Shown here: positions 960 to 60,350 of the stretch, piece by piece | How positions within the stretch are numbered: the first letter of the stretch is position 1 | Layout: each line of letters starts with the position of its first letter | Program-made: the position numbers and the translations under genes | Origin: Clostridiales bacterium | GTDB taxonomy: Bacteria; Bacillota; Clostridia; TANB77; SIG350 | DNA length: 64,000 bases | Assembly: GCA_015056545.1 (NCBI GenBank) | Contig: SVGE01000002.1 | Location: 12,120 to 76,119 of the forward strand | Direction: 5' to 3' | Notes under the pieces: model-generated | Seen by the model: the letters and a program-made list of their open reading frames with translations, nothing else | Databases searched by the model: none | Told to the model about the DNA's origin: nothing

Positions 960-1364
960 ATGGAAAACGCAAGTAAAGCTCTTTTAATAGCAGGTGCTAT
1001 ATTATTAGTTATAGCTATTATAGCTATAGGTATGACTATATTAGGTCAAGGACAAGATGTTGTAAATAAAACTGGAGGTCAAATAGGTGCTATGGCAATT
1101 AATGCTCATAATAGTCAATTTGGTGAAATACATAATAATGCAATAGTTAAAGGTACTGAATTAAAAAGAATTGCTTCAGTAGCTTTATCAAATAATCAAC
1201 AATCACAAGCAAATAAAGTATGTGATGTTACTATTACTATTGATGGAGTAGTTTTAGCAGCAAATACATTAGGAAATATAGTTACAAGTAGAGATTATAC
1301 AATAACTTTAGTAACATATACTAATGATGGTGCTATAACATCTTTCACAGCTACAGTAAGATAA
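960..1364 (+). CDS. Pilin-like paralog 1 (N-terminal MENASKALLIAG hydrophobic helix); possible major subunit
   Basis: Strong SD (aaaggggg) lies 8 nt upstream. The N-terminus is MENASKALLIAGAILLVIAIIAIG, with an AHNSQF motif and a C-terminal GAITSFTATV strand. It is the first of seven paralogs and is followed by a stem-loop. Confidence 0.6.
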   Translation: MENASKALLIAGAILLVIAIIAIGMTILGQGQDVVNKTGGQIGAMAINAHNSQFGEIHNNAIVKGTELKRIASVALSNNQQSQANKVCDVTITIDGVVLAANTLGNIVTSRDYTITLVTYTNDGAITSFTATVR

Positions 1365-1373
1365 TTACAAATT

Positions 1374-1413
1374 ACATATATGAGCAGTTATATTTAATAA
1401 CTGCTCTATATGT
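1374..1413 (+). promoter_or_regulatory. Stem-loop after the first pilin-like gene (no U-tract); possible partial terminator, RNA-stability or processing element
   Basis: Imperfect inverted repeat acatatatgagcagtta / taactgctctatatgt. It is followed by a 95-nt AT-rich spacer before the next SD. Confidence 0.35.
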
Positions 1414-1507
1414 AAAAATAAATATATTAATATATTATTTTATATAGTATATTAATATGTTTAGAAGTTTTAAACATAAAAAATTATTTTTTTAGGAGGA
1501 ATAAATT

Positions 1508-1954
1508 ATGGAAAACGCAAGTAAAGCTTTGCTTATCGCAGGAGCGATATTATTAGTAATAGCTATTATAGCTATAGCAGTAGGAATAGTAAGTTCTACA
1601 AGAGGTACAATTGGTGTAGCAGAAAATCAAATTGATGCAATGGAAGTAAAAATGCATAATAATCAATTTACAATATATGAAGGTGAAGTAACAGGTGCTG
1701 AAGTAAAAGATTGTGTTTCAAAAGCATTATCTAATAACACCAATACTAAACAATCAGAGATGAAAGTATGGGTTGTAGTTACTGCTAAAAATAGTGCAGG
1801 GGCAAATGTTACAACAAATTATGGAGTAAATGGTTCTACTACATATAATACAACATTTACATCATCAAGTGTAGAGACTAGTGCTAGATTTAATTGTGTT
1901 ACTTCAATAAATTCACAAGGTATAATAAATAAAATTACTTTTACACAAAAATAG
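1508..1954 (+). CDS. Pilin-like paralog 2
   Basis: SD aggagg. N-terminus MENASKALLIAGAILLVIAIIAIAVGIVSSTRGTIGVAENQIDAM, MHNNQFTIYEG motif, C-terminal GIINKITF. Confidence 0.6.
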   Translation: MENASKALLIAGAILLVIAIIAIAVGIVSSTRGTIGVAENQIDAMEVKMHNNQFTIYEGEVTGAEVKDCVSKALSNNTNTKQSEMKVWVVVTAKNSAGANVTTNYGVNGSTTYNTTFTSSSVETSARFNCVTSINSQGIINKITFTQK

Positions 1955-1964
1955 GTGATAAATT

Positions 1965-2396
1965 ATGGAAAATGCAAGTAAAGCATTATTAATAGCTGGT
2001 GGCGTTTTAGTAACATTAGCTGTAGTTTCAATAATAATGATAATATTTAATAAAGGAAGAGACTTTAATAAAACTCAAGTTGATAGTTTTGATAAAAAAA
2101 AGATTGCTTATCATAATAGCCAGTTTGCTGCTTATGAAAGAGAATTAGAAAAAGCAGAACTTCAAAAATTAATTGATGTAGCTATTAAAAATAACATAAA
2201 TGCAGAAAATAAAGAATATGTAGTTTCTGTTATATATAATGGTGTTAATTATTCTTTTAATCCTACATCTAAAAAATTAATGTATAACGGAAATGATTTA
2301 GAAGATATTAAACATGATAGTTTAGATAAATTTAATTGTTACACCAAAACTAATACTTATGGAATAATTACTGAAATTTATATAAATAAAATTTAG
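1965..2396 (+). CDS. Pilin-like paralog 3
   Basis: SD ggtga. N-terminus MENASKALLIAGGVLVTLAVVSII, YHNSQFAAYE motif, C-terminal GIITEIYI. The gap from the previous gene is 10 nt. Confidence 0.6.
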   Translation: MENASKALLIAGGVLVTLAVVSIIMIIFNKGRDFNKTQVDSFDKKKIAYHNSQFAAYERELEKAELQKLIDVAIKNNINAENKEYVVSVIYNGVNYSFNPTSKKLMYNGNDLEDIKHDSLDKFNCYTKTNTYGIITEIYINKI

Positions 2397-2407
2397 GGGG
2401 AAAACCT

Positions 2408-2902
2408 ATGGAAAATGCAAGTAAAGCATTATTAATTGCTGGAGCAATATTATTAGTAATAGCAATAATAGCAATAGCTGTGGGGATAGTAAGTAGTACC
2501 AGAGGAACTATAGATGTGGCAGGTAATCAAATAGATGGAATGTCAGTACAAATGCATAATAAACAATTTGAAGAGTATGCAGGTATTGGAAAAAGTATTG
2601 ATGAAGCAAAAGAATTAATAAGATTAGTAGCTTCTAATAATAGTAGCACACAAGATTCAAAAAGAAAAATAGAAGTTGAACTTTGGAATCAATTTGCTAC
2701 ACATGATCAAAATAAATTTGAAGGACAATATTGGGATAAATTACGTTCAGAAACAGAAGTAACTACTATATATAACTGGAGATTTTTTACCGAAGGTTCT
2801 GAAACAACTGGTGGAAATATAGGTAGAACATATAATATTAAATTAACATATGATTCATCAGGTTACATAACAAAGATTGATTTTTATAGAAGGTATAAAT
2901 AG
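2408..2902 (+). CDS. Pilin-like paralog 4
   Basis: SD ggggga. N-terminus MENASKALLIAGAILLVIAIIAIAVGIVSSTRGTI, MHNKQFEEYAG motif, C-terminal GYITKIDF. Confidence 0.6.
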   Translation: MENASKALLIAGAILLVIAIIAIAVGIVSSTRGTIDVAGNQIDGMSVQMHNKQFEEYAGIGKSIDEAKELIRLVASNNSSTQDSKRKIEVELWNQFATHDQNKFEGQYWDKLRSETEVTTIYNWRFFTEGSETTGGNIGRTYNIKLTYDSSGYITKIDFYRRYK

Positions 2903-2921
2903 AATTTAGGAGGAATAAACT

Positions 2922-3413
2922 ATGGAGAATGCAAGTAAAGCATTACTTATTGCAGGAGCAATATTACTAGTAATAGCTATAATAGCGATAGGAGTAGGAA
3001 TAGTAAGTAGTACTAGAGGAACGATAGGTGTAGCTGAAAATCAAATATCTTCAATGGAGATACAAATGCATAATGAACAATTTAAAAAGTATGAAGGTAA
3101 AGGAAAAACATATAATCAAGTAAAAGAAATATTAGCAGAAATGACAGCATATAACTCAGGCTTAAAAGATTCTGGTTTAAAAGTACAAGTAAAAACATAT
3201 AGGTATGCTAATGCTACTAATACTACTATTAATTCAAGCCATTCTTGTACTAAAGATCCAGATGCTATATATACAGGAGCAGGTTGTTATTTATTTGGAA
3301 GTAAAGCAACTTATGGAGCAAGTCATACAGAAAATTATTTATATGATATTTTCTGTGAATATGATGCTACAGGTGCTGTTAAATATATAAAATTGGTAAG
3401 ATACTATAACTAA
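2922..3413 (+). CDS. Pilin-like paralog 5
   Basis: SD aggagg. N-terminus MENASKALLIAGAILLVIAIIAIGVGIVSSTRGTI, MHNEQFKKYEG motif, C-terminal GAVKYIKL. Confidence 0.6.
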   Translation: MENASKALLIAGAILLVIAIIAIGVGIVSSTRGTIGVAENQISSMEIQMHNEQFKKYEGKGKTYNQVKEILAEMTAYNSGLKDSGLKVQVKTYRYANATNTTINSSHSCTKDPDAIYTGAGCYLFGSKATYGASHTENYLYDIFCEYDATGAVKYIKLVRYYN

Positions 3414-3426
3414 AGTGGGTGATGAT

Positions 3427-3849
3427 ATGGAAAATGCAAGTAAAGCTGTTATAATAGCAGGAGCAATATTGCTAATGTTAGCTATAATATCAATGGGAGT
3501 TATAATATTTGGAAAAGGAAAAATATTTGTAGATACTATGGATAAGCAATTATCTCAAAGTGATATACAAAACCACAATGCACAATTTACTAGATTTGAG
3601 GGTAATGTTTCAGGTGCAGAAGTAAAAAATGCGTGTAATGCTGTGGCACAAACAAATGAAAAAAATAAAGTTATATCTATGCAAATAATTGTATTAGAAA
3701 AAAATGGTACACAGTTTGCTAAGCATTCTAAGACTAATGATAATTTAAATAAAATTATGAATCAAGTTTCTAATACTCAAATGTTTAAAGGTAGTGTAAC
3801 ATATAACAGTGAAGGAATAATAGATACATTAACATTTAAAAAACAATAA
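3427..3849 (+). CDS. Pilin-like paralog 6
   Basis: The ORF track starts at GTG 3415. ATG 3427 restores the family N-terminus MENASKAVIIAGAILLMLAIISMG, and gtgggtga serves as the SD. It has an NHNAQFTRFEG motif and C-terminal GIIDTLTF. Confidence 0.6.
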   Translation: MENASKAVIIAGAILLMLAIISMGVIIFGKGKIFVDTMDKQLSQSDIQNHNAQFTRFEGNVSGAEVKNACNAVAQTNEKNKVISMQIIVLEKNGTQFAKHSKTNDNLNKIMNQVSNTQMFKGSVTYNSEGIIDTLTFKKQ

Positions 3850-3937
3850 TACATTAATAGAAATATTAATGTATATATGTCCTAGTTTTTAGGATATATA
3901 TATATTAATATATATATAGTTGGAAGGAGATAAATAT

Positions 3938-4402
3938 ATGGAAAATGCAAGTAAAGCATTATTAATAGCTGGTGGAGTTTTAGTTGCTCTTTTAGTAATA
4001 AGTTTAGGTATGTATATAATAGGGCGAGCACAAAATACAGCTGTTTCAGCAGAAGAAAGAAGATTACAAACTTTAACACAAGAACAAATAAATAAATTTT
4101 CACAGTATTCAGGAGAAATATATGGTATGGAAGTTGAAAACTGTATAAGAAGAATAGCTTCATATAATAAAGATAAAGCAAGTTCTGAAAGAATATTAAT
4201 AACATTATCTAAAAATACCGGTGGAACAGGTATAGTAGAATATGATGGTTCAGCAGATGAAATAATTGATCCTGCAATTGCAAATAAAATGAAAAATATT
4301 ATGAGTGAAACAGATAGAAATGATATATATACTGGGACAATAACATATTTAGCTAATGGAATGATAGAAAAAATAGATTTTGTTTTAAAAGAAAAAAAAT
4401 AA
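3938..4402 (+). CDS. Pilin-like paralog 7 (most divergent)
   Basis: The ORF track starts at TTG 3920. ATG 3938 follows SD ggaaggag and restores MENASKALLIAGGVLVALLVISLG. The HNxQF motif is degenerate (INKFSQYSGE) and the C-terminus is GMIEKIDF. Hairpins at about 3850-3900 precede it. Confidence 0.55.
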   Translation: MENASKALLIAGGVLVALLVISLGMYIIGRAQNTAVSAEERRLQTLTQEQINKFSQYSGEIYGMEVENCIRRIASYNKDKASSERILITLSKNTGGTGIVEYDGSADEIIDPAIANKMKNIMSETDRNDIYTGTITYLANGMIEKIDFVLKEKK

Positions 4403-22236: not shown

Positions 22237-22265
22237 TTGAAAAGTTAAAAAACATATGTTATATT
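22237..22265 (+). promoter_or_regulatory. P1 promoter of leader copy 1 (TTGAAA-17-TATATT)
   Basis: ttgaaa at 22237-22242 and tatatt at 22260-22265. The position is conserved in all three copies. Confidence 0.65.
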
Positions 22266-22290
22266 ACAAACAGAAAAGAGGTGTAAGAAA

Positions 22291-22356
22291 ATGTCAAATA
22301 AACCTAAGCCAAACTGCCAGAAAGTGCTAAATACTAGGGGGGGGGGATGTTTATAG
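22291..22356 (+). CDS. Leader sORF, 21 codons (MSNKPKPNCQKVLNTRGGGCL), containing the poly-G tract
   Basis: SD aaagaggtg lies 7 nt upstream of the ATG. SD, ATG and the MSNK...C.KVLNTRGG core are conserved in all three copies. Translation has not been demonstrated. Confidence 0.35.
   Translation: MSNKPKPNCQKVLNTRGGGCL
22337..22346 (+). repeat. Homopolymeric G10 tract
   Basis: Counted directly: 4 G at 22337-22340 plus 6 G at 22341-22346. The homologous tracts are G11 and G8. Confidence 0.95.
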
Positions 22357-22393
22357 TATAAAAACATCTTTAATTGACATGCAAAAAAATACA

Positions 22394-22445
22394 AAGAACT
22401 TAAGAATATATTACGAGAAAACGTAGTATAGTCTTAGGTTCTTTT
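22394..22445 (+). terminator. Long imperfect hairpin plus T-run inside the leader (intrinsic terminator/attenuator)
   Basis: aagaacttaagaatatattacg / cgtagtatagtcttaggttctt forms a 22-bp stem with 3 mismatch/wobble positions and an agaaaa loop, followed by tttt. Confidence 0.6.
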
Positions 22446-22542
22446 AATTTGCCAAAATTAAAAAACAAATAATTTGGCAATAATAAAATAAAGAACTGAG
22501 GAAGGGAGGAAAAAATAAAATAAAAAAACATCAACAAAACAG

Positions 22543-22582
22543 TTGAAGTTAAACTGAAAGTGTTATACAATAAAATTGTATA
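22543..22582 (+). promoter_or_regulatory. P2 promoter (TTGAAG-17-TACAAT) overlapped by the palindrome tatacaat-aaa-attgtata
   Basis: ttgaag at 22543-22548 and tacaat at 22566-22571. The 8-bp inverted repeat at 22564-22582 covers the -10 box. Confidence 0.55.
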
Positions 22583-22612
22583 AGAAAATTAAATTTAAAG
22601 GAGGAAAAAATC

Positions 22613-23764
22613 ATGAAAAATTTAAGTAAAAGAGCTGGAATCAGCTTAGTTGCATTAATTGTAACAATAATTGTGCTAATAATATTAACTGCTGCAGTTA
22701 TAGTTACGTTTATGGAAGGTGGAATAATAGACAGAGCAAAGGAAAGTGTATTTAAAAGTGATATAAGAACATATCAAGAAATATTAGCAGTAAAAAGAGC
22801 AGAAGAACAAATAAAGTTAGCAACAGGAAATGGCGAAGAAGAATTAAAATTAATAGACAAAACAATAACAGGGGAAGAAATAAAAGATATATTACCAGAA
22901 TTTAAAGTAGAAGAATATGGAGAATTAATAGAAGTAGCAAATGGAGAAATAGTAGCAAAAAAAGAATTAGATGAAGAAGTTATGCAAGAAAAATGGTTAA
23001 TAGAATTAGGAATAGGACTAGGAAGTAAAATTGGTAATATAGGAATTGTTCATAATGATATTATTCCAGAAGGTGGAACTTATTATAAAGGGATTAAATC
23101 TGTAGATGGCCCAGAAGGAACACCTGTTTATATGGTAGGAGATTATTCAACTGCAGAAGAGGTATTTAGTGAAGGAGATAATTTCCCAAATTTAGAAACA
23201 GGAGATGTTTATGTATATGGGGATTATGAATATAGATATAATTCTGAACTTACATCTATGTATTATATTTGGAATGGAGATATTTTTAAAAATGGTTGGG
23301 GAGTTGCTGTTAGAGAGCAAAACAAATCCGAGTATGGAGATATTTTAACTACTATTAATGGTAGTAATATTATAAGTATGAGAGCTACATTTTGTGGGTT
23401 TGGTAATTTGGAAAATGCACCATCAATTCCAAATACAGTAGCAATATTAGGAGAAACTTTTTTATCTACATCTATAACACAAGCTCCAATAATTCCAGGA
23501 AGTGTTACAGATATGGGATTTACTTTTTCTTCAAGCAGTATTGTTAATGCTCCTACTATACCGTCTAACGTTATTTATTTAGACCATATATTTGAAGGTT
23601 GTGCATCATTAACAGGTACAATCGAAATTAATTCTAATACATCAAATTATTCGGGTGCATTTATTGATACTGTTCAACCTATTACTCTAACAGGTTCTTC
23701 TACAAAACTAGCAGAAATAGCAGCAACAGCAAACAATGGAAATGTAACTGTGGCAACTAAATAA
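22613..23764 (+). CDS. Prepilin-like N-terminus (Gly(-1) kept, Ile(+1), Ala(+5)) fused to a BspA-type leucine-rich-repeat surface domain
   Basis: SD aaggagg. MKNLSKRAG/ISLVALIVTIIVLIILTAAVIV resembles the type IV prepilin (K/R)G/F(T/S)L(I/V)E core. The C-terminal repeats are of the IPxxV...F..C..L type (NAPSIPNTVAILGETF, APIIPGSVTDMGFTF, NAPTIPSNVIYLDHIFEGCASL). Confidence 0.6.
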   Translation: MKNLSKRAGISLVALIVTIIVLIILTAAVIVTFMEGGIIDRAKESVFKSDIRTYQEILAVKRAEEQIKLATGNGEEELKLIDKTITGEEIKDILPEFKVEEYGELIEVANGEIVAKKELDEEVMQEKWLIELGIGLGSKIGNIGIVHNDIIPEGGTYYKGIKSVDGPEGTPVYMVGDYSTAEEVFSEGDNFPNLETGDVYVYGDYEYRYNSELTSMYYIWNGDIFKNGWGVAVREQNKSEYGDILTTINGSNIISMRATFCGFGNLENAPSIPNTVAILGETFLSTSITQAPIIPGSVTDMGFTFSSSSIVNAPTIPSNVIYLDHIFEGCASLTGTIEINSNTSNYSGAFIDTVQPITLTGSSTKLAEIAATANNGNVTVATK

Positions 23765-25704: not shown

Positions 25705-25726
25705 ATTATTGTATGAAAATTAAATA

Positions 25727-25832
25727 AAAATGCTGAATCTTTGTAAAAAGAGCCGAGGAACCAATTTTGGGGTGTATCATATAAATGAGGGAAACCTTTT
25801 ATTCCTAACCCGTCAGCTAACTTGGCAAGCTA
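25727..25832 (+). promoter_or_regulatory. ydaO/kimA-class c-di-AMP riboswitch aptamer
   Basis: Blocks match the recalled consensus in order: tgctgaatc, gagccgaggaaccaa, ttggggtgtatc, gagggaaacc, aacccgtcagctaacttggcaagc. Compare B. subtilis ...GAGCGGGGGACCCA...UUGGGGUGAAUC...ACCCGUCAGCUAACCUCGUAAGCG. Confidence 0.75.
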
Positions 25833-25853
25833 TATAAGAGGAAAATAACTAAG

Positions 25854-25910: not shown

Positions 25911-26972
25911 ATGAAAAATAGTAAAATTAGTGTAATTGTACCAATATATAATGTGGAAAATTATTTGAATAATTGTATAGATAGTATAATTAATCAAACA
26001 TACTCAAATTTAGAAATAATATTAGTAGATGATGAATCAACAGATAATTCAGGAAAAATTGCAGACGAATATATTAAAAAAGATAATAGAATTAAAGTTA
26101 TTCATAAGAAAAATGGAGGATTATCTGATACGAGAAATGCAGGAATAGAAATTGCTACAGGGGATTATTTAATGTTTATCGACTCAGATGATTTTTTCCC
26201 TATAAATGCATGTGAAGTTTTAGTAAATAAAATTGAAGAAAAGCAAGCTGATTATGTAATCGGAAATTATATTAATACCCAGGAGAATGGAAAGCTATGG
26301 GAAAAGCCTATTTTTAATACAGAGAAATATAAAGAGTTTGAATTAAGTATAAAAGATTATAAAGATTCTTTTTATATAATGAATTCTAGTGCTTGTAATA
26401 AAATATTTAAAGCAAGTTTTATAAAAGAATTGAATTTAAAATTTGAAGTAGGTTTGCCGGCAGAAGATGCTATATTTACTACATATTGTTTTATTAAAGC
26501 AAATAAAGTTGTATATATTCCAGAAATAATTTATTGTTATAGACAAAGAAATGCAGGGACATCCATTTCTATGAATTGTACAGAAAAGTATTTTAATGGA
26601 ATCAATAATGCATATAAAATAATTTATAATAATTTTAAAGAAAATGATGAAATAGGTTTTTACAGATTTTTTTATGCAAAAAGTATGACATATATGTTGT
26701 ATAAATTCATAGATTCAAAATTTATAAATGATGAACAAAAAATAGATATTTTATCACAAATGAGATGGTTTTATAAATTAAGCAAAGAACTTAATGTTCC
26801 GGCGTGTCAAGAGTCATTAAGTTTAATTATAGATAAAATAATTAATGGAGATTATAAAGATGTTATAGATATTTGCAAAGTTATTGCAGAAGTAAGAACA
26901 TTTATGCCACAAGATATTAAAGAAACTATGTCTAAGCCACAGGCAGATATGTATTTAAAAATGATGGAATAA
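25911..26972 (+). CDS. Family-2 glycosyltransferase (cell-envelope polysaccharide/teichoic-acid type)
   Basis: ISVIVPIYNVENYLNNCIDSIINQTYSNLEIILVDDESTDNSG...DSDD is the canonical GT2 N-terminal domain. Confidence 0.8.
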   Translation: MKNSKISVIVPIYNVENYLNNCIDSIINQTYSNLEIILVDDESTDNSGKIADEYIKKDNRIKVIHKKNGGLSDTRNAGIEIATGDYLMFIDSDDFFPINACEVLVNKIEEKQADYVIGNYINTQENGKLWEKPIFNTEKYKEFELSIKDYKDSFYIMNSSACNKIFKASFIKELNLKFEVGLPAEDAIFTTYCFIKANKVVYIPEIIYCYRQRNAGTSISMNCTEKYFNGINNAYKIIYNNFKENDEIGFYRFFYAKSMTYMLYKFIDSKFINDEQKIDILSQMRWFYKLSKELNVPACQESLSLIIDKIINGDYKDVIDICKVIAEVRTFMPQDIKETMSKPQADMYLKMME

Positions 26973-26984
26973 TTGGAGGATATT

Positions 26985-27998
26985 ATGAATAAATTAATAA
27001 CTGTAATTGTACCAGTATATAATGTTGAGAAATATATTAGAAATTGTATAGAAAGTATAATTAATCAAACTTATTCTAATTTAGAAATAATATTAGTTGA
27101 TGATGGTTCTTTAGATAGTAGTCCACAAATAATAGATGAATATGCTAAAAAGGATAAAAGAATAAGAGTTATACATAAGGAAAATGGAGGAGTTTCATCT
27201 GCTAGAAATGCAGGCTTGAAAATTGCGAGTGGTGAGTATATAACATTTGTAGATAGTGATGATACAATTAATAGTAAAATATATGAAATATTATATAATT
27301 TAATAAAAAAATATGATACAGAAATTACTATGTGTGAAGCAATAAAAGTTTATGAAGATGAAGAAGGAAAAATTATAATTCCAGAACTTGAAGAAAATGA
27401 TATTCAAGAAAAAGTACTTAATAGTGGTGAAGCAATTAAATTAATGATAATGGATGGAAATATAGGTAATTTTGCTTGTACAAAGTTATTTAAAAAAGAG
27501 TTGTTTAATAATATAACTTTTCCAGATGGAAAAGTTTATGAAGATGCGGGAACAACATATAAGGTTGTCCACAATGCTAATAAAATTGTTTATACAAATT
27601 TAAAACTATATAATTATTTTTATGGTAGGATAGGATCAATTACATCAACTTTTACAGAAAAAAAGATATTAGATAGTTTAGAAGCATATTTTGAACAATA
27701 TTTATTTATATTAAATAATTATCCAGAAATTAAACAATATGCTAATATTACATGGGTGAGAATGTATACAAGTGCAATGGAAAAAATATGTATGAATAAT
27801 TATATTGATTTATGGGATAGAGAAGATGTAATAGAAAAATATGAATATTTCAAGAAAGCAATAGATGAAATTGATAAAGAAATATTATATAATAACTTAG
27901 AACAATATAGATTGATAAGTGCAGTTATATTAAGACATAGTAGAGAAATATATAAAAAGATGTTTAAAACAATATATAATAATTTAAAAAATATTTAA
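26985..27998 (+). CDS. Family-2 glycosyltransferase (paralog of the preceding gene)
   Basis: ATG 26985 follows SD ggagg. The GT2 N-terminal domain reads ITVIVPVYNVEKYIRNCIESIINQTYSNLEIILVDDGSLDSS...DSDD. Confidence 0.8.
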   Translation: MNKLITVIVPVYNVEKYIRNCIESIINQTYSNLEIILVDDGSLDSSPQIIDEYAKKDKRIRVIHKENGGVSSARNAGLKIASGEYITFVDSDDTINSKIYEILYNLIKKYDTEITMCEAIKVYEDEEGKIIIPELEENDIQEKVLNSGEAIKLMIMDGNIGNFACTKLFKKELFNNITFPDGKVYEDAGTTYKVVHNANKIVYTNLKLYNYFYGRIGSITSTFTEKKILDSLEAYFEQYLFILNNYPEIKQYANITWVRMYTSAMEKICMNNYIDLWDREDVIEKYEYFKKAIDEIDKEILYNNLEQYRLISAVILRHSREIYKKMFKTIYNNLKNI

Positions 27999-30838: not shown

Positions 30839-30912
<74 letters not shown>

Positions 30913-41157: not shown

Positions 41158-41658
41158 ATGTTTTATCCAAATGAAATATATGAAGCTATTGAAAAAATAG
41201 ATATACAAAAATTATTAAATAATAATATACAAGGTATGATATTAGATGTAGATAATACACTTATTGACCATAATAGAATATTAACAGATAAAGTTATTAA
41301 TTGGGTAAATGAAGTTAAAGAAGCGGGAATAAAAGTATATATTTTATCTAATACAATAAAGAAAAGAAAAGTTGAAGATGTGTCTAAAAAATTAGATATA
41401 CCATATATAATGTTTGCAAAAAAACCTTCTAAAAAAGGATTTATTGAGTGTATAGAAAAATTAAATATTAAACCTGAAAATATATGTGTAATTGGTGATC
41501 AGATTTTTACAGATATATTAGGTGGTAACAGAATGGGGATGTATACTATTTATACAAAACCTATTAATAAAAAAGATTGTAGTATAACTACAACTGTAAA
41601 AAGACCATTTGAAAAAATAGTTTTAAAAAAATATGTACAAAAGAAAGGTGATAAATAA
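41158..41658 (+). CDS. YqeG-family HAD-IIIA phosphatase
   Basis: The DxDxT motif (ILDVDNTL), SN...KP.., and GDQIFTDILGGN are typical of the YqeG family. Confidence 0.8.
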   Translation: MFYPNEIYEAIEKIDIQKLLNNNIQGMILDVDNTLIDHNRILTDKVINWVNEVKEAGIKVYILSNTIKKRKVEDVSKKLDIPYIMFAKKPSKKGFIECIEKLNIKPENICVIGDQIFTDILGGNRMGMYTIYTKPINKKDCSITTTVKRPFEKIVLKKYVQKKGDK

Positions 41659-42377
41659 TGATAATGACTTTTTATAATGCAATTATATGTTTAATATTAG
41701 CTGTAGTTGGAATGCTTGTTGGGCAAATTAATTTAGTTTGCTATAAAGTACTTCCATGTGGTGATGATGAAAAAGAACCACCTGTTTTTAGAAAAGAAAA
41801 TTTTAAAAATGAATTTAATCTATTGTTTGGACTTCCTACAATGATACTATTTCCATTGCTTTTCTTAAAATATGGAATAGCTTTAGAGTTTTTTGCTTAT
41901 TCATTATTAAGTGTAGCATTAGTAACAGTTGTAGCAGTAGATTTTAAACATTGTATTATTCCGGATAAAATAAATTTATTTATTGTTATAACAGGAATAA
42001 TATATATAATTGGTTTATTTATTACGAAGCAAACATCAGTAGCAATTAGTCATATATTAGGTGGATTAATTGGAGGAGGAATTTTCCTTGCATTAGCTTT
42101 AATATCTTTAGTTATATATAAACAAGAAGGTATGGGATTTGGTGATGTTAAATTAATGACAGGTTTAGGATTATTTTATGGAATTAAAGGAATTCTTGTA
42201 TTAACATTAGTTGGATTTGCATTAGGAGCAGTTGTTTGTATAGCATTAATTGTTGCTAAAATAAAAAGCATGAAAGACTATATTCCTTTTGGACCATTTC
42301 TTGTAATTGCAGCTACTTTATTAATGTTTATTCCATCAGGATTTTTTGTAGACTGGTATTTAAATTTATTAAAATAA
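41658..42377 (+). CDS. A24-family prepilin (type IV leader) peptidase, short form
   Basis: Both catalytic Asp contexts are present (IIPDKINLF and GMGFGDVKLMTGLG). It is multi-TM, with no Cys-rich N-terminal methyltransferase/zinc region. It lies directly upstream of leader copy 2. Confidence 0.8.
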   Translation: MIMTFYNAIICLILAVVGMLVGQINLVCYKVLPCGDDEKEPPVFRKENFKNEFNLLFGLPTMILFPLLFLKYGIALEFFAYSLLSVALVTVVAVDFKHCIIPDKINLFIVITGIIYIIGLFITKQTSVAISHILGGLIGGGIFLALALISLVIYKQEGMGFGDVKLMTGLGLFYGIKGILVLTLVGFALGAVVCIALIVAKIKSMKDYIPFGPFLVIAATLLMFIPSGFFVDWYLNLLK

Positions 42378-42481
42378 AATAATTATGGCATCTAAGAGAT
42401 AGATGTCATATTTTTTTATAAAACTACTTGAAATGATGAAATACATATGGTATATTACAAACAGAAAAGGGGTGAATAAAA

Positions 42482-42553
42482 ATGTCAAATAAAACCAACC
42501 TAAACTGCCATAAAGTGCTAAATACTAGGGGGGGGGGGATGTTTATAAAATAA
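42482..42553 (+). CDS. Leader sORF copy 2, 23 codons (MSNKTNLNCHKVLNTRGGGMFIK)
   Basis: SD aaaggggtg. The position is homologous to 22291. Confidence 0.35.
   Translation: MSNKTNLNCHKVLNTRGGGMFIK
42528..42538 (+). repeat. Homopolymeric G11 tract
   Basis: Counted directly: 3 G at 42528-42530 plus 8 G at 42531-42538. Confidence 0.95.
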
Positions 42554-42584
42554 GAACATCTTTATTTGACATGCAAAAAAGTAG

Positions 42585-42637
42585 AGAACTTAAGAATATA
42601 TTACGAAAAAAACGTAGTATAGTCTTAGGTTCTTTTT
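42585..42637 (+). terminator. Leader hairpin/terminator copy 2
   Basis: agaacttaagaatatattacg / cgtagtatagtcttaggttct followed by ttttt. Confidence 0.6.
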
Positions 42638-42712
42638 AGTGCGCGCAAAAAAGGACTTAGGCATCCATTAGCCTATAATGGAAAAATTAAATTTTAAAGG
42701 AGGAAAAAGATT

Positions 42713-58617: not shown

Positions 58618-58728
58618 AGAGTAAAGAGTTTAGAGTATCTAATTAGATATTTTAAACTCTTTTTAATTAAACTATTGCAAAGTTAAAATACATATGGTAA
58701 TATTAAAAACAGAAAAGAGGTGTAGAAA

Positions 58729-58797
58729 ATGTCAAATAAAACCAGCGTAAAGTGCCAGAAAGTGCTAAATACTAGGGGGGGGATGTTTATAGCATAA
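58729..58797 (+). CDS. Leader sORF copy 3, 22 codons (MSNKTSVKCQKVLNTRGGMFIA)
   Basis: SD aaagaggtg. The position is homologous to 22291. Confidence 0.35.
   Translation: MSNKTSVKCQKVLNTRGGMFIA
58775..58782 (+). repeat. Homopolymeric G8 tract
   Basis: Counted directly: 6 G at 58775-58780 plus 2 G at 58781-58782. Confidence 0.95.
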
Positions 58798-58828: not shown

Positions 58829-58880
58829 AAAGAACTTAAGAATATATTACGAAAAAACGTAATGTAGTCTTAGGTTCTTT
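58829..58880 (+). terminator. Leader hairpin/terminator copy 3
   Basis: aaagaacttaagaatatattacg / cgtaatgtagtcttaggttcttt followed by a T-run. Confidence 0.6.
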
Positions 58881-58983
58881 TAATTTGCCAAAATTAAAAA
58901 AATATATTTTGGAAATAATAAAATAAAGAGCCGAGGGAAGGAGGTAATAACAAAAGAAAAATAAAAAAACTACAACAAAACAG

Positions 58984-59021
58984 TTGAAGTAAAACTAAAA
59001 GTGTTGTACAATGGTATTGTA
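58984..59021 (+). promoter_or_regulatory. P2 promoter copy 3 (TTGAAG-17-TACAAT) with the overlapping inverted repeat tacaat-ggt-attgta
   Basis: ttgaag at 58984-58989 and tacaat at 59007-59012. The inverted-repeat partner is at 59016-59021. Confidence 0.55.
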
Positions 59022-59057: not shown

Positions 59058-60350
59058 ATGAAAAAATCAAGTAAAAGAGATGGAATCAGCTTAGTAGCAC
59101 TAATTGTAACAATAATTGTACTAATAATATTAACTGCTGCAGTTATAGTTACATTTATGGAAGGTGGAATAATAGAAAAGGCGAAAGAAGCGGTATTTAA
59201 AAGTGATATAAGAACATATCAAGAAATATTAGCGGTAAAAAATGCAGAGAATATGATTAATTTAGCAACCGGAAATGGAGAAGATACTCCGCTTAATGCG
59301 ACAGAATTAGAAGATATACAAGAAATGATACCAGAATTTAAAGAAGAATATGATGGGTTAATAGTAATAAGTAATGGAGAGATAGTATTAGGAACAGAAA
59401 GTAAAGAGCCATATAGTGGATGGTTAGCAGATTTAGGGATAGGAGTAGCACCATTACCAGAAAATGCGATAGCAAATAAAGTAGAAGTAGGAGACTATGT
59501 GGCATATACTCCAGGAGAAGAAGAAAGAAGTTACGAATTATTAGGAACAGATAGTGGTTATTTTACACCAGAAGATTCATACGAGGGATCGGATCCATCC
59601 TATTATCCAAATAGCTTGTTAGACCAAACAATAGAAAGAAAGCATGATATAAATTGGAGAGTATTAAAAATAGATGGTAATAAAGTAACATTAATAAGTG
59701 AAACACCAATAGATGATATAGGTTTTGGAGGAAACTTAGCATATTTAAATGGTCCACAACAATTAGATAATATATACTCAAGTTTATATAGTAAAACAGG
59801 TGTAGGTACAGCAAGAAATATAGATGTAGAAGATGTAAATGAAATAATGGGAGTAGTAATAGGTGAAGATGTAAAATCTGTATACCAAGATGGAGATGGT
59901 ACTGAAACAGAAGTTGATGTAGGCACTAAACTAGGAGAAGTATATGATGCATATGGCTGGCTTGATATGACTAGCTTTTGCAATGTTGAAGATTTGGAAT
60001 ATGATAATACTTTTGGATATTATTATGGTGATTATGAAATTTCATATTATACATATAATGGAAGTACATATGAAGAAGGTAAAGAAACAGAATATGATTT
60101 ATTGTTTAATGGAGAATATTGGCTTGCTTCACAAACAGCTTATTTAATGCTTTGTGGTGATTCACCATTTTATATGCGTAAGATTAAAGGAGATGTAATT
60201 TCAGCTGAATATTTTTGGAATACATGTAATACTTGGAGAAGCTTAAGCCTTCCAGGTCGTCCTATAGTTGAATTAAATGCTAATGTAGAAATATCTGAAA
60301 GTAATACAGGAGATGGAACTAGTGCAGCTTCAGCATGGCAATTAAAATAA
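59058..60350 (+). CDS. Prepilin-like N-terminus (G/ISLVA) fused to a C-terminal surface domain (paralog of 42713)
   Basis: SD gaaggga. MKKSSKRDG/ISLVALIVTIIVLIILTAAVIV. It carries EPYSGWLADLGI, DINWRVLKIDGNKVTLI, EDVNE, EYWLAS and the tail GDGTSAASAWQLK. Confidence 0.6.
   Translation: MKKSSKRDGISLVALIVTIIVLIILTAAVIVTFMEGGIIEKAKEAVFKSDIRTYQEILAVKNAENMINLATGNGEDTPLNATELEDIQEMIPEFKEEYDGLIVISNGEIVLGTESKEPYSGWLADLGIGVAPLPENAIANKVEVGDYVAYTPGEEERSYELLGTDSGYFTPEDSYEGSDPSYYPNSLLDQTIERKHDINWRVLKIDGNKVTLISETPIDDIGFGGNLAYLNGPQQLDNIYSSLYSKTGVGTARNIDVEDVNEIMGVVIGEDVKSVYQDGDGTETEVDVGTKLGEVYDAYGWLDMTSFCNVEDLEYDNTFGYYYGDYEISYYTYNGSTYEEGKETEYDLLFNGEYWLASQTAYLMLCGDSPFYMRKIKGDVISAEYFWNTCNTWRSLSLPGRPIVELNANVEISESNTGDGTSAASAWQLK

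Follow-up and report, generated by a model that had tools for sequence, protein, structure and literature searches.

Three copies of a leader cassette, each preceding a gene for a pilin-like protein, lie in the same orientation in a 64-kb stretch of DNA from an uncultured Clostridiales bacterium (GenBank assembly GCA_015056545.1, contig SVGE01000002.1, positions 12,120 to 76,119; the whole of this stretch, with 26.3% GC, is called the window below). We propose that each cassette is an independent slipped-strand contingency switch for the one family gene that it precedes, and that it operates through the reading frame of a small open reading frame (ORF) in the leader, which contains a poly-G tract. 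We give this reading a probability of about 0.5. That the tract is a functional phase-variation switch acting on the downstream gene is likely, and the specific mechanism that we favour, in which a translating ribosome controls a terminator and the long frame is the ON state, is put forward from the sequence as a tentative model, at a little under even odds.

The initial annotation of the window described a repeated module of promoter, small ORF, poly-G tract and hairpins, with copies some 20 kb and 16 kb apart among housekeeping genes, and this description holds well. A repeat search (repeat families D3, D5, D7, D9, D13 and D15) and a three-way MAFFT alignment agree on three direct copies where they had been placed. 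Their starts are about 20.1 kb and 16.3 kb apart, and all of the listed elements are present in an identical order (Table 1). From the first promoter, P1, to the long hairpin the window copies are 86-91% identical in pairwise comparison, and the near-identity reported for the gene starts extends over codons 1-75 (88-91%). Beyond codon 75 the paralogous genes fall to 56-64% identity, and the 200-nt flanks on both sides give 54-59%, which is the AT-rich background. The nearest relative among the window copies changes from one segment of the cassette to another. Copy 2 is shorter by about 90 nt and is without hairpin 2, the purine block and a candidate second promoter (P2), elements that are limited to copies 1 and 3 as previously described. 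A conserved block, aaagtgctaaatacta, is listed in the leader between the start of the small ORF and the poly-G tract. Among the genes that separate the copies are those for NAD kinase, a methyltransferase, MurJ, a HAD phosphatase, an AP-endonuclease-like protein and a NuoE-like ferredoxin, and because the terminator of the upstream gene precedes each cassette, the cassette should be insulated from upstream transcription. The homology of both leaders and gene starts is in agreement with the earlier view that a shared cis-regulatory cassette precedes paralogous genes, probably for surface proteins.

The number of repeats first reported, three, is correct for the window, but the family is considerably larger. 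A search with the product of the copy 2 gene returned 367 protein relatives, and at least 17 family members carry the locus tag prefix E7311 of one NCBI metagenome-assembled genome (MAG), 'Clostridiales bacterium'. The N-terminal 120 or so residues of the family are near-identical, while the C-terminal parts differ and in some members contain leucine-rich repeats. For comparison with the window, 26 related loci were taken from assemblies at ENA, JGI, NCBI and Logan (L numbers below; proteins and peptides have P numbers). The same cassette is found in every member of the expanded subfamily that is readable upstream of the gene, in one of two types. In the long type the long hairpin is followed by hairpin 2, the purine block and a P2-like site, whereas in the short type (copy 2, L014 at 9831, and L016) it is followed by about 75 nt with only a small hairpin and the Shine-Dalgarno sequence (SD) of the gene. 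The leader DNA pattern had no match in GTDB genome contigs, JGI metagenome contigs or viral contigs, collections in which the organism is evidently not represented. When genome contigs were scanned at the protein level, a single distant relative came back, and it lacks the cassette.

The poly-G tract begins 45 nt inside the small ORF in each window copy. Runs of 7 or more G or C occur only three times in the 64-kb window, as the cassette tracts of 10, 11 and 8 G, and in 17 related loci all runs of at least 6 G, on either strand, fall inside leaders. By arithmetic estimate the composition of the window would give about 0.01 runs of at least 8 G in 64 kb, against the 3 found at the same position of the cassette, and a chance origin of the tracts is excluded. 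Lengths of 8, 9, 10 and 11 G are read as DNA among the copies and a 12-G state is deduced from peptide P0131, giving a range of 8-12 G that lies at or above the length of about 7-8 from which homopolymers are hypermutable. The length also differs at one and the same locus between assemblies. Since some contigs are broken or chimeric at the cassette, we used only those cases in which both flanks or the whole peptide match. The cleanest is the locus of protein P0002, which has 9 G in L007 and 8 G in L008, in contigs of more than 100 kb whose flanks are identical on both sides. In addition, one Gly is all that separates P0128 (9 G) from P0131 (12 G). P0129 and P0130 correspond to a 9-G reading of the L015 and L016 leaders, which show 10 G in those contigs, and P0124 is the leader of window copy 1 with 9 G where the window has 10 G. 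A protein database search with the 44-residue long-frame peptide returned 11 distinct products and a further three in one cluster. That tract length varies from copy to copy, and for the same allele from assembly to assembly, supports the suggestion made in the initial annotation that control is probably stochastic. Common control, which it also suggested, is not supported, as each copy has a tract of its own (10, 11 or 8 G) and would switch independently, with only the design shared. As a separate observation, the window contains two tRNA-Gly(UCC) genes (16468-16541 and 30839-30912, + strand) that would read the GGG codons of the leader, which are rare at 26% GC, and ribosome pausing or slippage on the tract is conceivable.

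The consequence of a change in tract length can be read from the geometry of the small ORF. The ORF starts at an ATG (22291, 42482 and 58729) about 7 nt downstream of an SD of the form GAGGTG or GGGGTG, as had been noted before; what had been missed is that it carries the tract, which sets its frame relative to the long hairpin. In all of the 13 or more distinct alleles two of the three frames stop 8 or 13 nt past the tract, in the loop of hairpin 1, and give peptides of 21-23 residues; in the L010/L011 allele, where the tract has absorbed the next base, the corresponding stops lie 7 and 12 nt past it. More than 30 nt separate the stops of these short frames from the stem of the long hairpin. 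The third frame, read with 9 or 12 G, extends to 43-51 codons and reaches its stop in the long hairpin, within the loop or the 3' arm, or in the T-run. In copy 1 these two tract lengths would give 44 or 45 codons, to the TAG at 22424-22426 in the 3' arm, and in copy 2 they would give 51 or 52 codons, past the whole hairpin and its T-run. In every allele a change in the number of Gs moves the stop of the small ORF relative to the hairpin. Indels of -2 or +1 in the spacer change the peptide (...ELKNILRKNVM in place of ...NLRIYYEKT) and still leave the frame open, and because such alleles stay open in another frame, it is the open frame and not the peptide sequence that is kept.

Several features suggest that the small ORF is translated, as we infer from the alleles compared. 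Its start codon is ATG or TTG only, and neither stops nor indels interrupt its hypervariable codons 4-9, even though indels are present immediately beyond the ORF. The 44-residue form was annotated by the gene caller in L007 and in about 14 other alleles. A short promoter-proximal ORF with translation signals is the arrangement characteristic of leader-peptide attenuation. The long frame is present in only 1 or 2 of 20 leader instances fetched via the downstream proteins, and all three window copies are in a short frame. This scarcity fits a family that is mostly OFF.

The predicted structures of the leader RNA are conserved. The 22-bp long hairpin has a folding free energy of -23.8 kcal/mol (z = -7.1 relative to shuffles), with an A-run before it and a T-run of the form TTTT(A/G/T)... 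after it, and is 98.9% paired across alleles. Taken together, the three helices of the leader (start region with TTGACAT, hairpin 1 and long hairpin) are 98% paired in 13 alleles, as opposed to 39-51% in controls with the partner slid by 1-3 columns. Examination by eye and by folding identified compensatory changes in two loci. In L015a hairpin 1 is TGTTCT/AGAACA instead of TGTTT/AAACA, and in L027 the long hairpin shows a compensatory G-C to A-U exchange together with a repaired mismatch. L027 is from a second species, with a protein 41% identical; its contig begins inside the long hairpin, leaving the tract outside it, and hairpin 2 is retained with a different distal stem, TTTGCCCTA/TAGGGCAAA. 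The TTGACA of the conserved ttgacatgc has no -10 box at 16-18 nt, and pairs instead with the start region of the small ORF. This pairing of AUGUCAA with the conserved UUGACAU (22291-22297 with 22374-22380, and likewise in copies 2 and 3, with an 11-bp helix in copy 2) is an observation in its own right, and the modelled helix might limit re-initiation at the small ORF.

Other ways in which the leader could act were considered. Across the alleles we found no conserved segment that could pair with the 5' arm of the long hairpin as an alternative, in the way of the antiterminator in trp- or his-type attenuators, and a candidate antiterminator between the hairpin 1 loop and the 5' arm was rejected on the variability of the loop sequence among alleles. 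Attenuation of the pyrBI type requires no antiterminator. Pairing of the poly-G tract with a C/U-rich segment was likewise discarded, there being no conserved partner and only the last Gs pairing, with UUU at the base of hairpin 1. A role for the tract as a promoter spacer, in the style of porA, tp0126 or vlp, was set aside since no flanking pair of -35 and -10 boxes was apparent by eye. An Rfam scan of the whole window at gathering thresholds identified only a c-di-AMP riboswitch and two tRNAs, none of them in the leaders, and the best match to the leader in a permissive Rfam scan had E = 0.26, far below gathering.

The ancestry of the cassette is indicated by two relatives that do not have it. 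L018 (protein P0020), which is more distantly related, has a promoter and SD like those of the leader, and its ATG...SNKNYQLVLNTHKL start is fused directly to GISLVTLIITIII (GISLV...), with no cassette. The small ORF (MSNK....CQKVLNTRGG) is homologous to the N-terminal leader of this protein, and because in L018 the leader is fused to the gene, the small ORF is the remnant of the original pre-protein leader of the family, an origin that the initial annotation had missed. The poly-G tract occupies the position of the former cleavage-site Gly codon. L019 (P0113), a divergent paralog from the same genome, has a P1-like promoter directly before the gene, without small ORF, tract or hairpin. As both L018 and L019 have this promoter directly at the gene, P1 is the ancestral promoter. 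In the expanded subfamily the module of tract and hairpin has come to lie between P1 and a gene that has acquired a new SD and start codon.

These features can be combined in the following model. P1, the ancestral gene promoter, would start the transcript, and the small ORF with its SD would be translated first, in a frame set by the 8-12 G of the tract. In either short frame the ribosome would stop 8-15 nt past the tract, in the loop of hairpin 1, and leave the RNA more than 30 nt before the long hairpin, which would form and end or inactivate the transcript, so that expression of the gene would be OFF or low. With 9 or 12 G the ribosome would cover the 5' arm and extend into the 3' arm, the hairpin would be blocked, and polymerase would reach the gene, which has its own SD and would be ON. 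Hairpin 1 may serve as a pause site at which the ribosome could catch up with polymerase. The logic would be that of pyrBI-type antitermination, set by a heritable and reversible frameshift and not by a metabolite. The model starts from what can be read directly (cassette anatomy, tract-length polymorphism, frame-to-stop geometry, hairpin stability and the ancestry of the small ORF), and adds to it that the small ORF would be translated, that the long hairpin would terminate transcription, that the long frame would correspond to ON and that the switch would be reversible within a population.

A number of points weigh against this model. Tract lengths were taken from consensus assemblies, in which several contigs are chimeric or broken at the cassette. 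The layout of two early stops and a frame open to the hairpin arises in about 5% of dinucleotide shuffles of the 95-nt segment, and the alleles are related and hence are not independent trials; the frame geometry therefore suggests a switch as a pointer and not as proof. Covariation analysis, which the initial annotation had recommended, gave one-sided changes only (for example A-U to G-U) among the 13 alleles, with no double change. The long hairpin was not called by a simple consensus terminator scan, its T-run is short (4-5 T) and partly paired with the upstream A-run, and a stem of 22 bp is long for an intrinsic terminator and would suit RNase III as well. Transcription-translation coupling is reportedly weak in Firmicutes such as B. 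subtilis, and because of this a pause would be needed, for which hairpin 1 is a candidate. Finally, long-type leaders may have a promoter of their own in P2, which would bypass the switch. The second promoter reported by the initial annotation does exist as a site, but its score of 9/12 occurs at chance frequency, with 3 matches of this type found against 3.0 expected in a scan of AT-rich DNA, and other copies conserve its -10 box and the overlapping hairpin but vary in the -35 box. In favour of the model, short-type leaders (copy 2, L014 and L016) are without the P2 region, and their genes consequently have no other obvious promoter than P1.

The tract could also be a real phase switch in which the long hairpin acts after transcription, as an RNase III or other processing site or as a stability element, with the logic of the frames perhaps reversed (long frame OFF) or graded. 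We consider this unlikely, though it is the main alternative. A stem of 22 bp has the length of RNase III substrates, the T-run is short, and the small hairpins located just before the SD of the gene in both leader types could protect 5' ends after cleavage. There is a precedent in H. influenzae hmw, where a repeat-dependent hairpin in the 5' untranslated region (UTR) is cut by RNase III (PMC12721329). Against such a role, the layout of A-run, stem and T-run is typical of intrinsic terminators. The consistent position of the long-frame stop in or just after the hairpin is explained most simply by ribosome occupancy, though it would also fit protection from RNase III.

A quite unlikely explanation regards the module as a duplicated 5' end of the gene in decay, consisting of the promoter and the first 17 codons and kept alike by gene conversion, with a non-regulatory tract and with the genes driven by P2 or other promoters. 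The homology of the small ORF to the ancestral N-terminal leader is expected under this explanation, as is the homogenisation of the leader and the first 75 codons to about 90% while the rest has diverged, and because of this homogenisation conservation alone is no proof of function. P2-like sites in the long-type leaders would also be consistent with decay. However, in every allele compared the SD, the start codon, the open frame, the two stops of the short frames, the hairpin and an unbroken run of at least 8 G are intact. Elsewhere in the window and the related loci, at 26% GC, no long G runs occur, short-type leaders have no P2, and the hairpins survive in a second species through compensatory changes.

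We regard it as improbable that the 43-51-residue long form is itself the product, as a phase-variable small protein, with the downstream gene separately regulated. Gene calls for the long form exist in about 15 alleles, two of which were seen on 10 and 13 contigs. However, indel alleles read the hairpin in another frame, such that openness is conserved and not the peptide, and a protein database search identified no homolog outside these leaders. It is more improbable again that sequencing or assembly errors account for the variable tract lengths and that the leader is fixed and does not switch. Homopolymers are error-prone, and contigs do break or become chimeric at the cassette, but the 9-G and 8-G states of L007 and L008 are embedded in identical flanks in contigs of more than 100 kb, tracts of 8-12 G recur across many assemblies from different pipelines (JGI, ENA), and errors in individual reads are averaged out by consensus calling. 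The dispersal of many copies in varied genomic contexts might also suggest a mobile-element end or a module of phage origin, but this can be dismissed almost entirely, as no transposase or integrase lies beside the copies, the repeat always enters the same gene family in the same orientation, the leader pattern had 0 matches in viral contigs, and BLAST searches gave only marginal, AT-rich matches in phage and plasmid collections; together with the negative Rfam scans, these results show that the module is not a known mobile-element terminus.

The initial annotation had also suggested that the copies are substrates for recombination. The same gene is found behind different upstream sequences, or different genes behind the same one, in L001/L002, L003/L004, L014/L016 and L022/L023, and P0135 combines the leucine-rich repeat C-terminus of P0026 with the N-terminal module of P0007, from different samples, as either a module swap between paralogs or a chimera. 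On these sequences recombination between copies is plausible, but because de Bruijn assemblers give the same patterns at repeats of at least 500 nt it is unproven. A related observation concerns the metagenome contigs L002, L004-L006, L011, L013, L016, L017 and L021-L027, which often end within the cassette, several of them exactly at the poly-G tract, while others join different chromosomal contexts. These breaks and joins reflect either repeat-induced misassembly or real rearrangement.

The proteins encoded downstream of the cassettes have in common a short basic leader ending in Gly, with about 20 hydrophobic residues after it (...SKRAG, then ISLVALIVTIIVLIILTAAVIV). This is the arrangement of leader, Gly and hydrophobic helix found in class III signal peptides. 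An AlphaFold model of the copy 2 product, with a mean predicted local distance difference test (pLDDT) score of 83.5, shows a long helix at the N-terminus, interrupted at GG (residues 12-35 and 38-71), with mixed alpha/beta domains after it. Position +5 is Ala and not the Glu of type IV pilins. The products had no Pfam hit, their sole NCBIfam match was to GspG at sub-threshold scores (E = 0.04-0.1), and a Foldseek search of the copy 2 model against the PDB returned nothing with E below 1. Because of the Ala at +5, and as there is no pilin model above threshold and no relative in the PDB, we have not classed these proteins as type IV pilins, and describe them as pilin-like and probably surface-exposed. 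In favour of a pilin-like identity, the one gene in the window that could be assigned to pilus machinery codes for a prepilin peptidase; it stops 23 nt short of the copy 2 cassette, and its product is the candidate for processing the leader peptides of the family. In L018 (1-8190; Logan ERR11635919) the family homolog adjoins divergent genes of the T2SSF, T2SSE, ParA/CbiA-like ATPase and TraG/DUF87-like P-loop types, a gene neighbourhood that resembles a Tad- or conjugation-like assembly module.

Phase variation driven by repeats is a textbook phenomenon in host-adapted pathogens such as Neisseria, Haemophilus, Campylobacter, Treponema and Mycoplasma, and the proposed switch combines elements of several known systems. 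In E. coli pyrBI a leader ORF of about 44 codons runs through an intrinsic terminator and a ribosome close to polymerase blocks the hairpin, the signal being UTP-dependent pausing. The Clostridiales leader similarly has, in its long frame, a promoter-proximal ORF of comparable length that runs into a hairpin and is proposed to act in the same way, but here the proposed signal is a heritable homopolymer frameshift, and no metabolite-sensing codons are evident. In N. meningitidis siaD a frameshift in a poly-C tract leads to a premature stop and to Rho-dependent termination inside the structural gene. The proposed sequence of homopolymer frameshift, loss of translation and downstream termination is the same, except that a dedicated small ORF and a hairpin upstream of an intact gene would act. 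The vlp genes of Mycoplasma hyorhinis are clustered and have a poly-A tract in the promoter spacer. They resemble the present family in a conserved 5' block (promoter, leader and signal sequence) joined to variable 3' parts, in having one homopolymer per gene and in belonging to a low-GC, Firmicute-related lineage, but the vlp genes have no leader ORF or putative terminator, and the genes described here are dispersed. In Neisseria, opa comprises about 11 dispersed paralogs with CTCTT repeats in the region coding for the signal peptide. The likeness to opa lies in a dispersed surface-protein family with a repeat in each copy near the conserved 5' end, with independent frame-based on/off switching (proposed here) and with variable 3' parts; opa copies recombine. 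The differences are that the opa repeat is within the gene, whereas the tract described here belongs to a distinct small ORF ahead of the gene, with a long hairpin and T-run after it, the gene having its own SD and start, and that the tract is a homopolymer and the host a Gram-positive anaerobe. The opa genes are also mentioned in PMC3745409.

In T. pallidum, poly-G tracts of 7-11 G lie upstream of paralogous outer-membrane protein genes (tpr and tp0126), and vary within and between isolates (PMC7864442). The range of G numbers before surface-protein paralogs is the same as in our cassettes. In that organism, however, the tract is in or just upstream of the promoter and alters initiation, either with the transcription start site (TSS) 4 nt downstream or with the tract between the -35 and -10 boxes (PMC7864442), unlike the present tract, which lies 45 nt inside an ORF that appears to be translated and about 65 nt past the predicted TSS. 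H. influenzae hmw1A has transcribed heptamer repeats in its 5'-UTR and a hairpin processed by RNase III (PMC12721329). It shares with the cassette a repeat transcribed in the 5' leader together with a long hairpin, which in hmw is essential for phase-variable output. The hmw repeats form an arm of the hairpin and give graded output, whereas here the tract is outside the hairpin and a period-3 dependence is predicted. Full-text searches on phase variation together with leader peptides, terminators, upstream ORFs or Clostridia turned up no homopolymer placed in a leader ORF of its own before a terminator, and no example from Clostridia. To our knowledge, repeat-driven phase variation is hardly documented in Clostridia, in which the known switches are invertible DNA elements. 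The general kind of system, a surface-protein family with one tract per gene, is therefore known, and the leader-ORF design of the switch, as read from these sequences, appears to be new.

Table 1. Positions in the window of the cassette elements, the genes that follow them and the prepilin peptidase gene.
Feature	Position	Strand	Basis and remarks
P1, copy 1 (TTGAAA, 17-nt spacer with TG, TATATT)	22237..22265	+	10/12 matches; conserved in all leader copies; homologous to gene promoters in L018 and L019
SD GAGGTG (22278-22283) and leader small ORF, copy 1	22278..22356	+	ATG 22291; with 10 G, 21 codons, TAG 22354-22356
Poly-G tract, copy 1, 10 G	22337..22346	+	run scan; 9-G-frame peptide P0124 called in another assembly
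Hairpin 1, copy 1 (GATGTTT/AAACATC)	22346..22368	+	loop contains stops of both short frames
TTGACAT block, copy 1	22374..22380	+	complementary to small-ORF start ATGTCAA 22291-22297; helix in minimum free energy and centroid structures
Long hairpin (13 + 9 bp) and T-run, copy 1	22393..22445	+	proposed terminator/attenuator; 3' arm 22422-22444
Hairpin 2, copy 1 (TTGCCAAAATT / AATTTGGCAA)	22449..22480	+	folding
Purine block, copy 1 (GAGGAAGGGAGG)	22498..22509	+	found in all long-type leaders
Candidate P2, copy 1 (TTGAAG-17-TACAAT)	22543..22583	+	9/12; overlaps small hairpin TTATACAAT/ATTGTATAA
Copy 1 gene, 383 aa, pilin-like N-terminus (MKNLSKRAG, then ISLVALIVTIIVLIIL)	22613..23764	+	
Prepilin (type IV leader) peptidase gene (PF01478, Peptidase_A24)	41658..42377	+	E = 6e-16; ends 23 nt before copy 2 cassette
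P1, copy 2	42428..42456	+	10/12, with TG
Leader small ORF, copy 2, 23 codons with 11 G	42482..42553	+	tract 42528-42538
Long hairpin and T-run, copy 2	42583..42637	+	folding, alignment
Short-type spacer, copy 2	42638..42712	+	small hairpin CCATTA/TAATGG and SD
Copy 2 gene, 416 aa	42713..43963	+	AlphaFold mean pLDDT 83.5
P1, copy 3 (TTGCAA, 17 nt, TG-n-TAATAT)	58675..58703	+	sequence and alignment; simple promoter scan made no call
Leader small ORF, copy 3, 22 codons with 8 G	58729..58797	+	tract 58775-58782
Long hairpin and T-run, copy 3	58829..58881	+	sequence, alignment
Candidate P2, copy 3	58984..59012	+	9/12
Copy 3 gene, 430 aa (= P0018)	59058..60350	+	

Elsewhere in the window, eight tandem paralogous ORFs of 134-164 aa, all starting MENASKALLIAGAILLVIAIIAI, occupy 960-4402 (+ strand). 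After them, as far as 9985, come proteins with an N-terminal anchor (155, 190, 1183 and 292 aa) that gave no Pfam match; the cluster may be a filament- or pilus-like operon. A c-di-AMP (ydaO-type) riboswitch (25721-25845, + strand, 90.9 bits) lies directly before tandem paralogous GT2-like genes at 25911-26972 and 26973-27998. An ORF on the minus strand (15072-16130) contains the internal repeat family D12, with three 52-nt copies at 15355-15475 that apparently encode an acidic, Asp/Tyr-rich stretch. The host organism also has the sporulation genes SpoIIP, SpoIVA and SpoIIM.

A wider picture, to which we give somewhat less than an even chance, is that of a new design of contingency locus with a homopolymer in a leader ORF derived from a former N-terminus, where the frame of the ORF would determine whether ribosomes enter and open a terminator. 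At least 20 dispersed genes would switch independently, and the cassettes, about 90% identical, would also serve as handles for recombination by which variable 3' domains could be swapped. Cassettes of this kind break or scramble metagenome assemblies, and such families are easily missed or mis-joined in MAGs. If the proposal is correct, frameshift-controlled leader-peptide attenuation would join the known modes of control by repeat tracts, and the small ORF would be a clear example of the old 5' end of a gene recycled into a regulatory ORF. It would also mean that an uncultured gut anaerobe runs a large family of stochastically expressed surface or pilus-like proteins, with combinatorial variation among its members.

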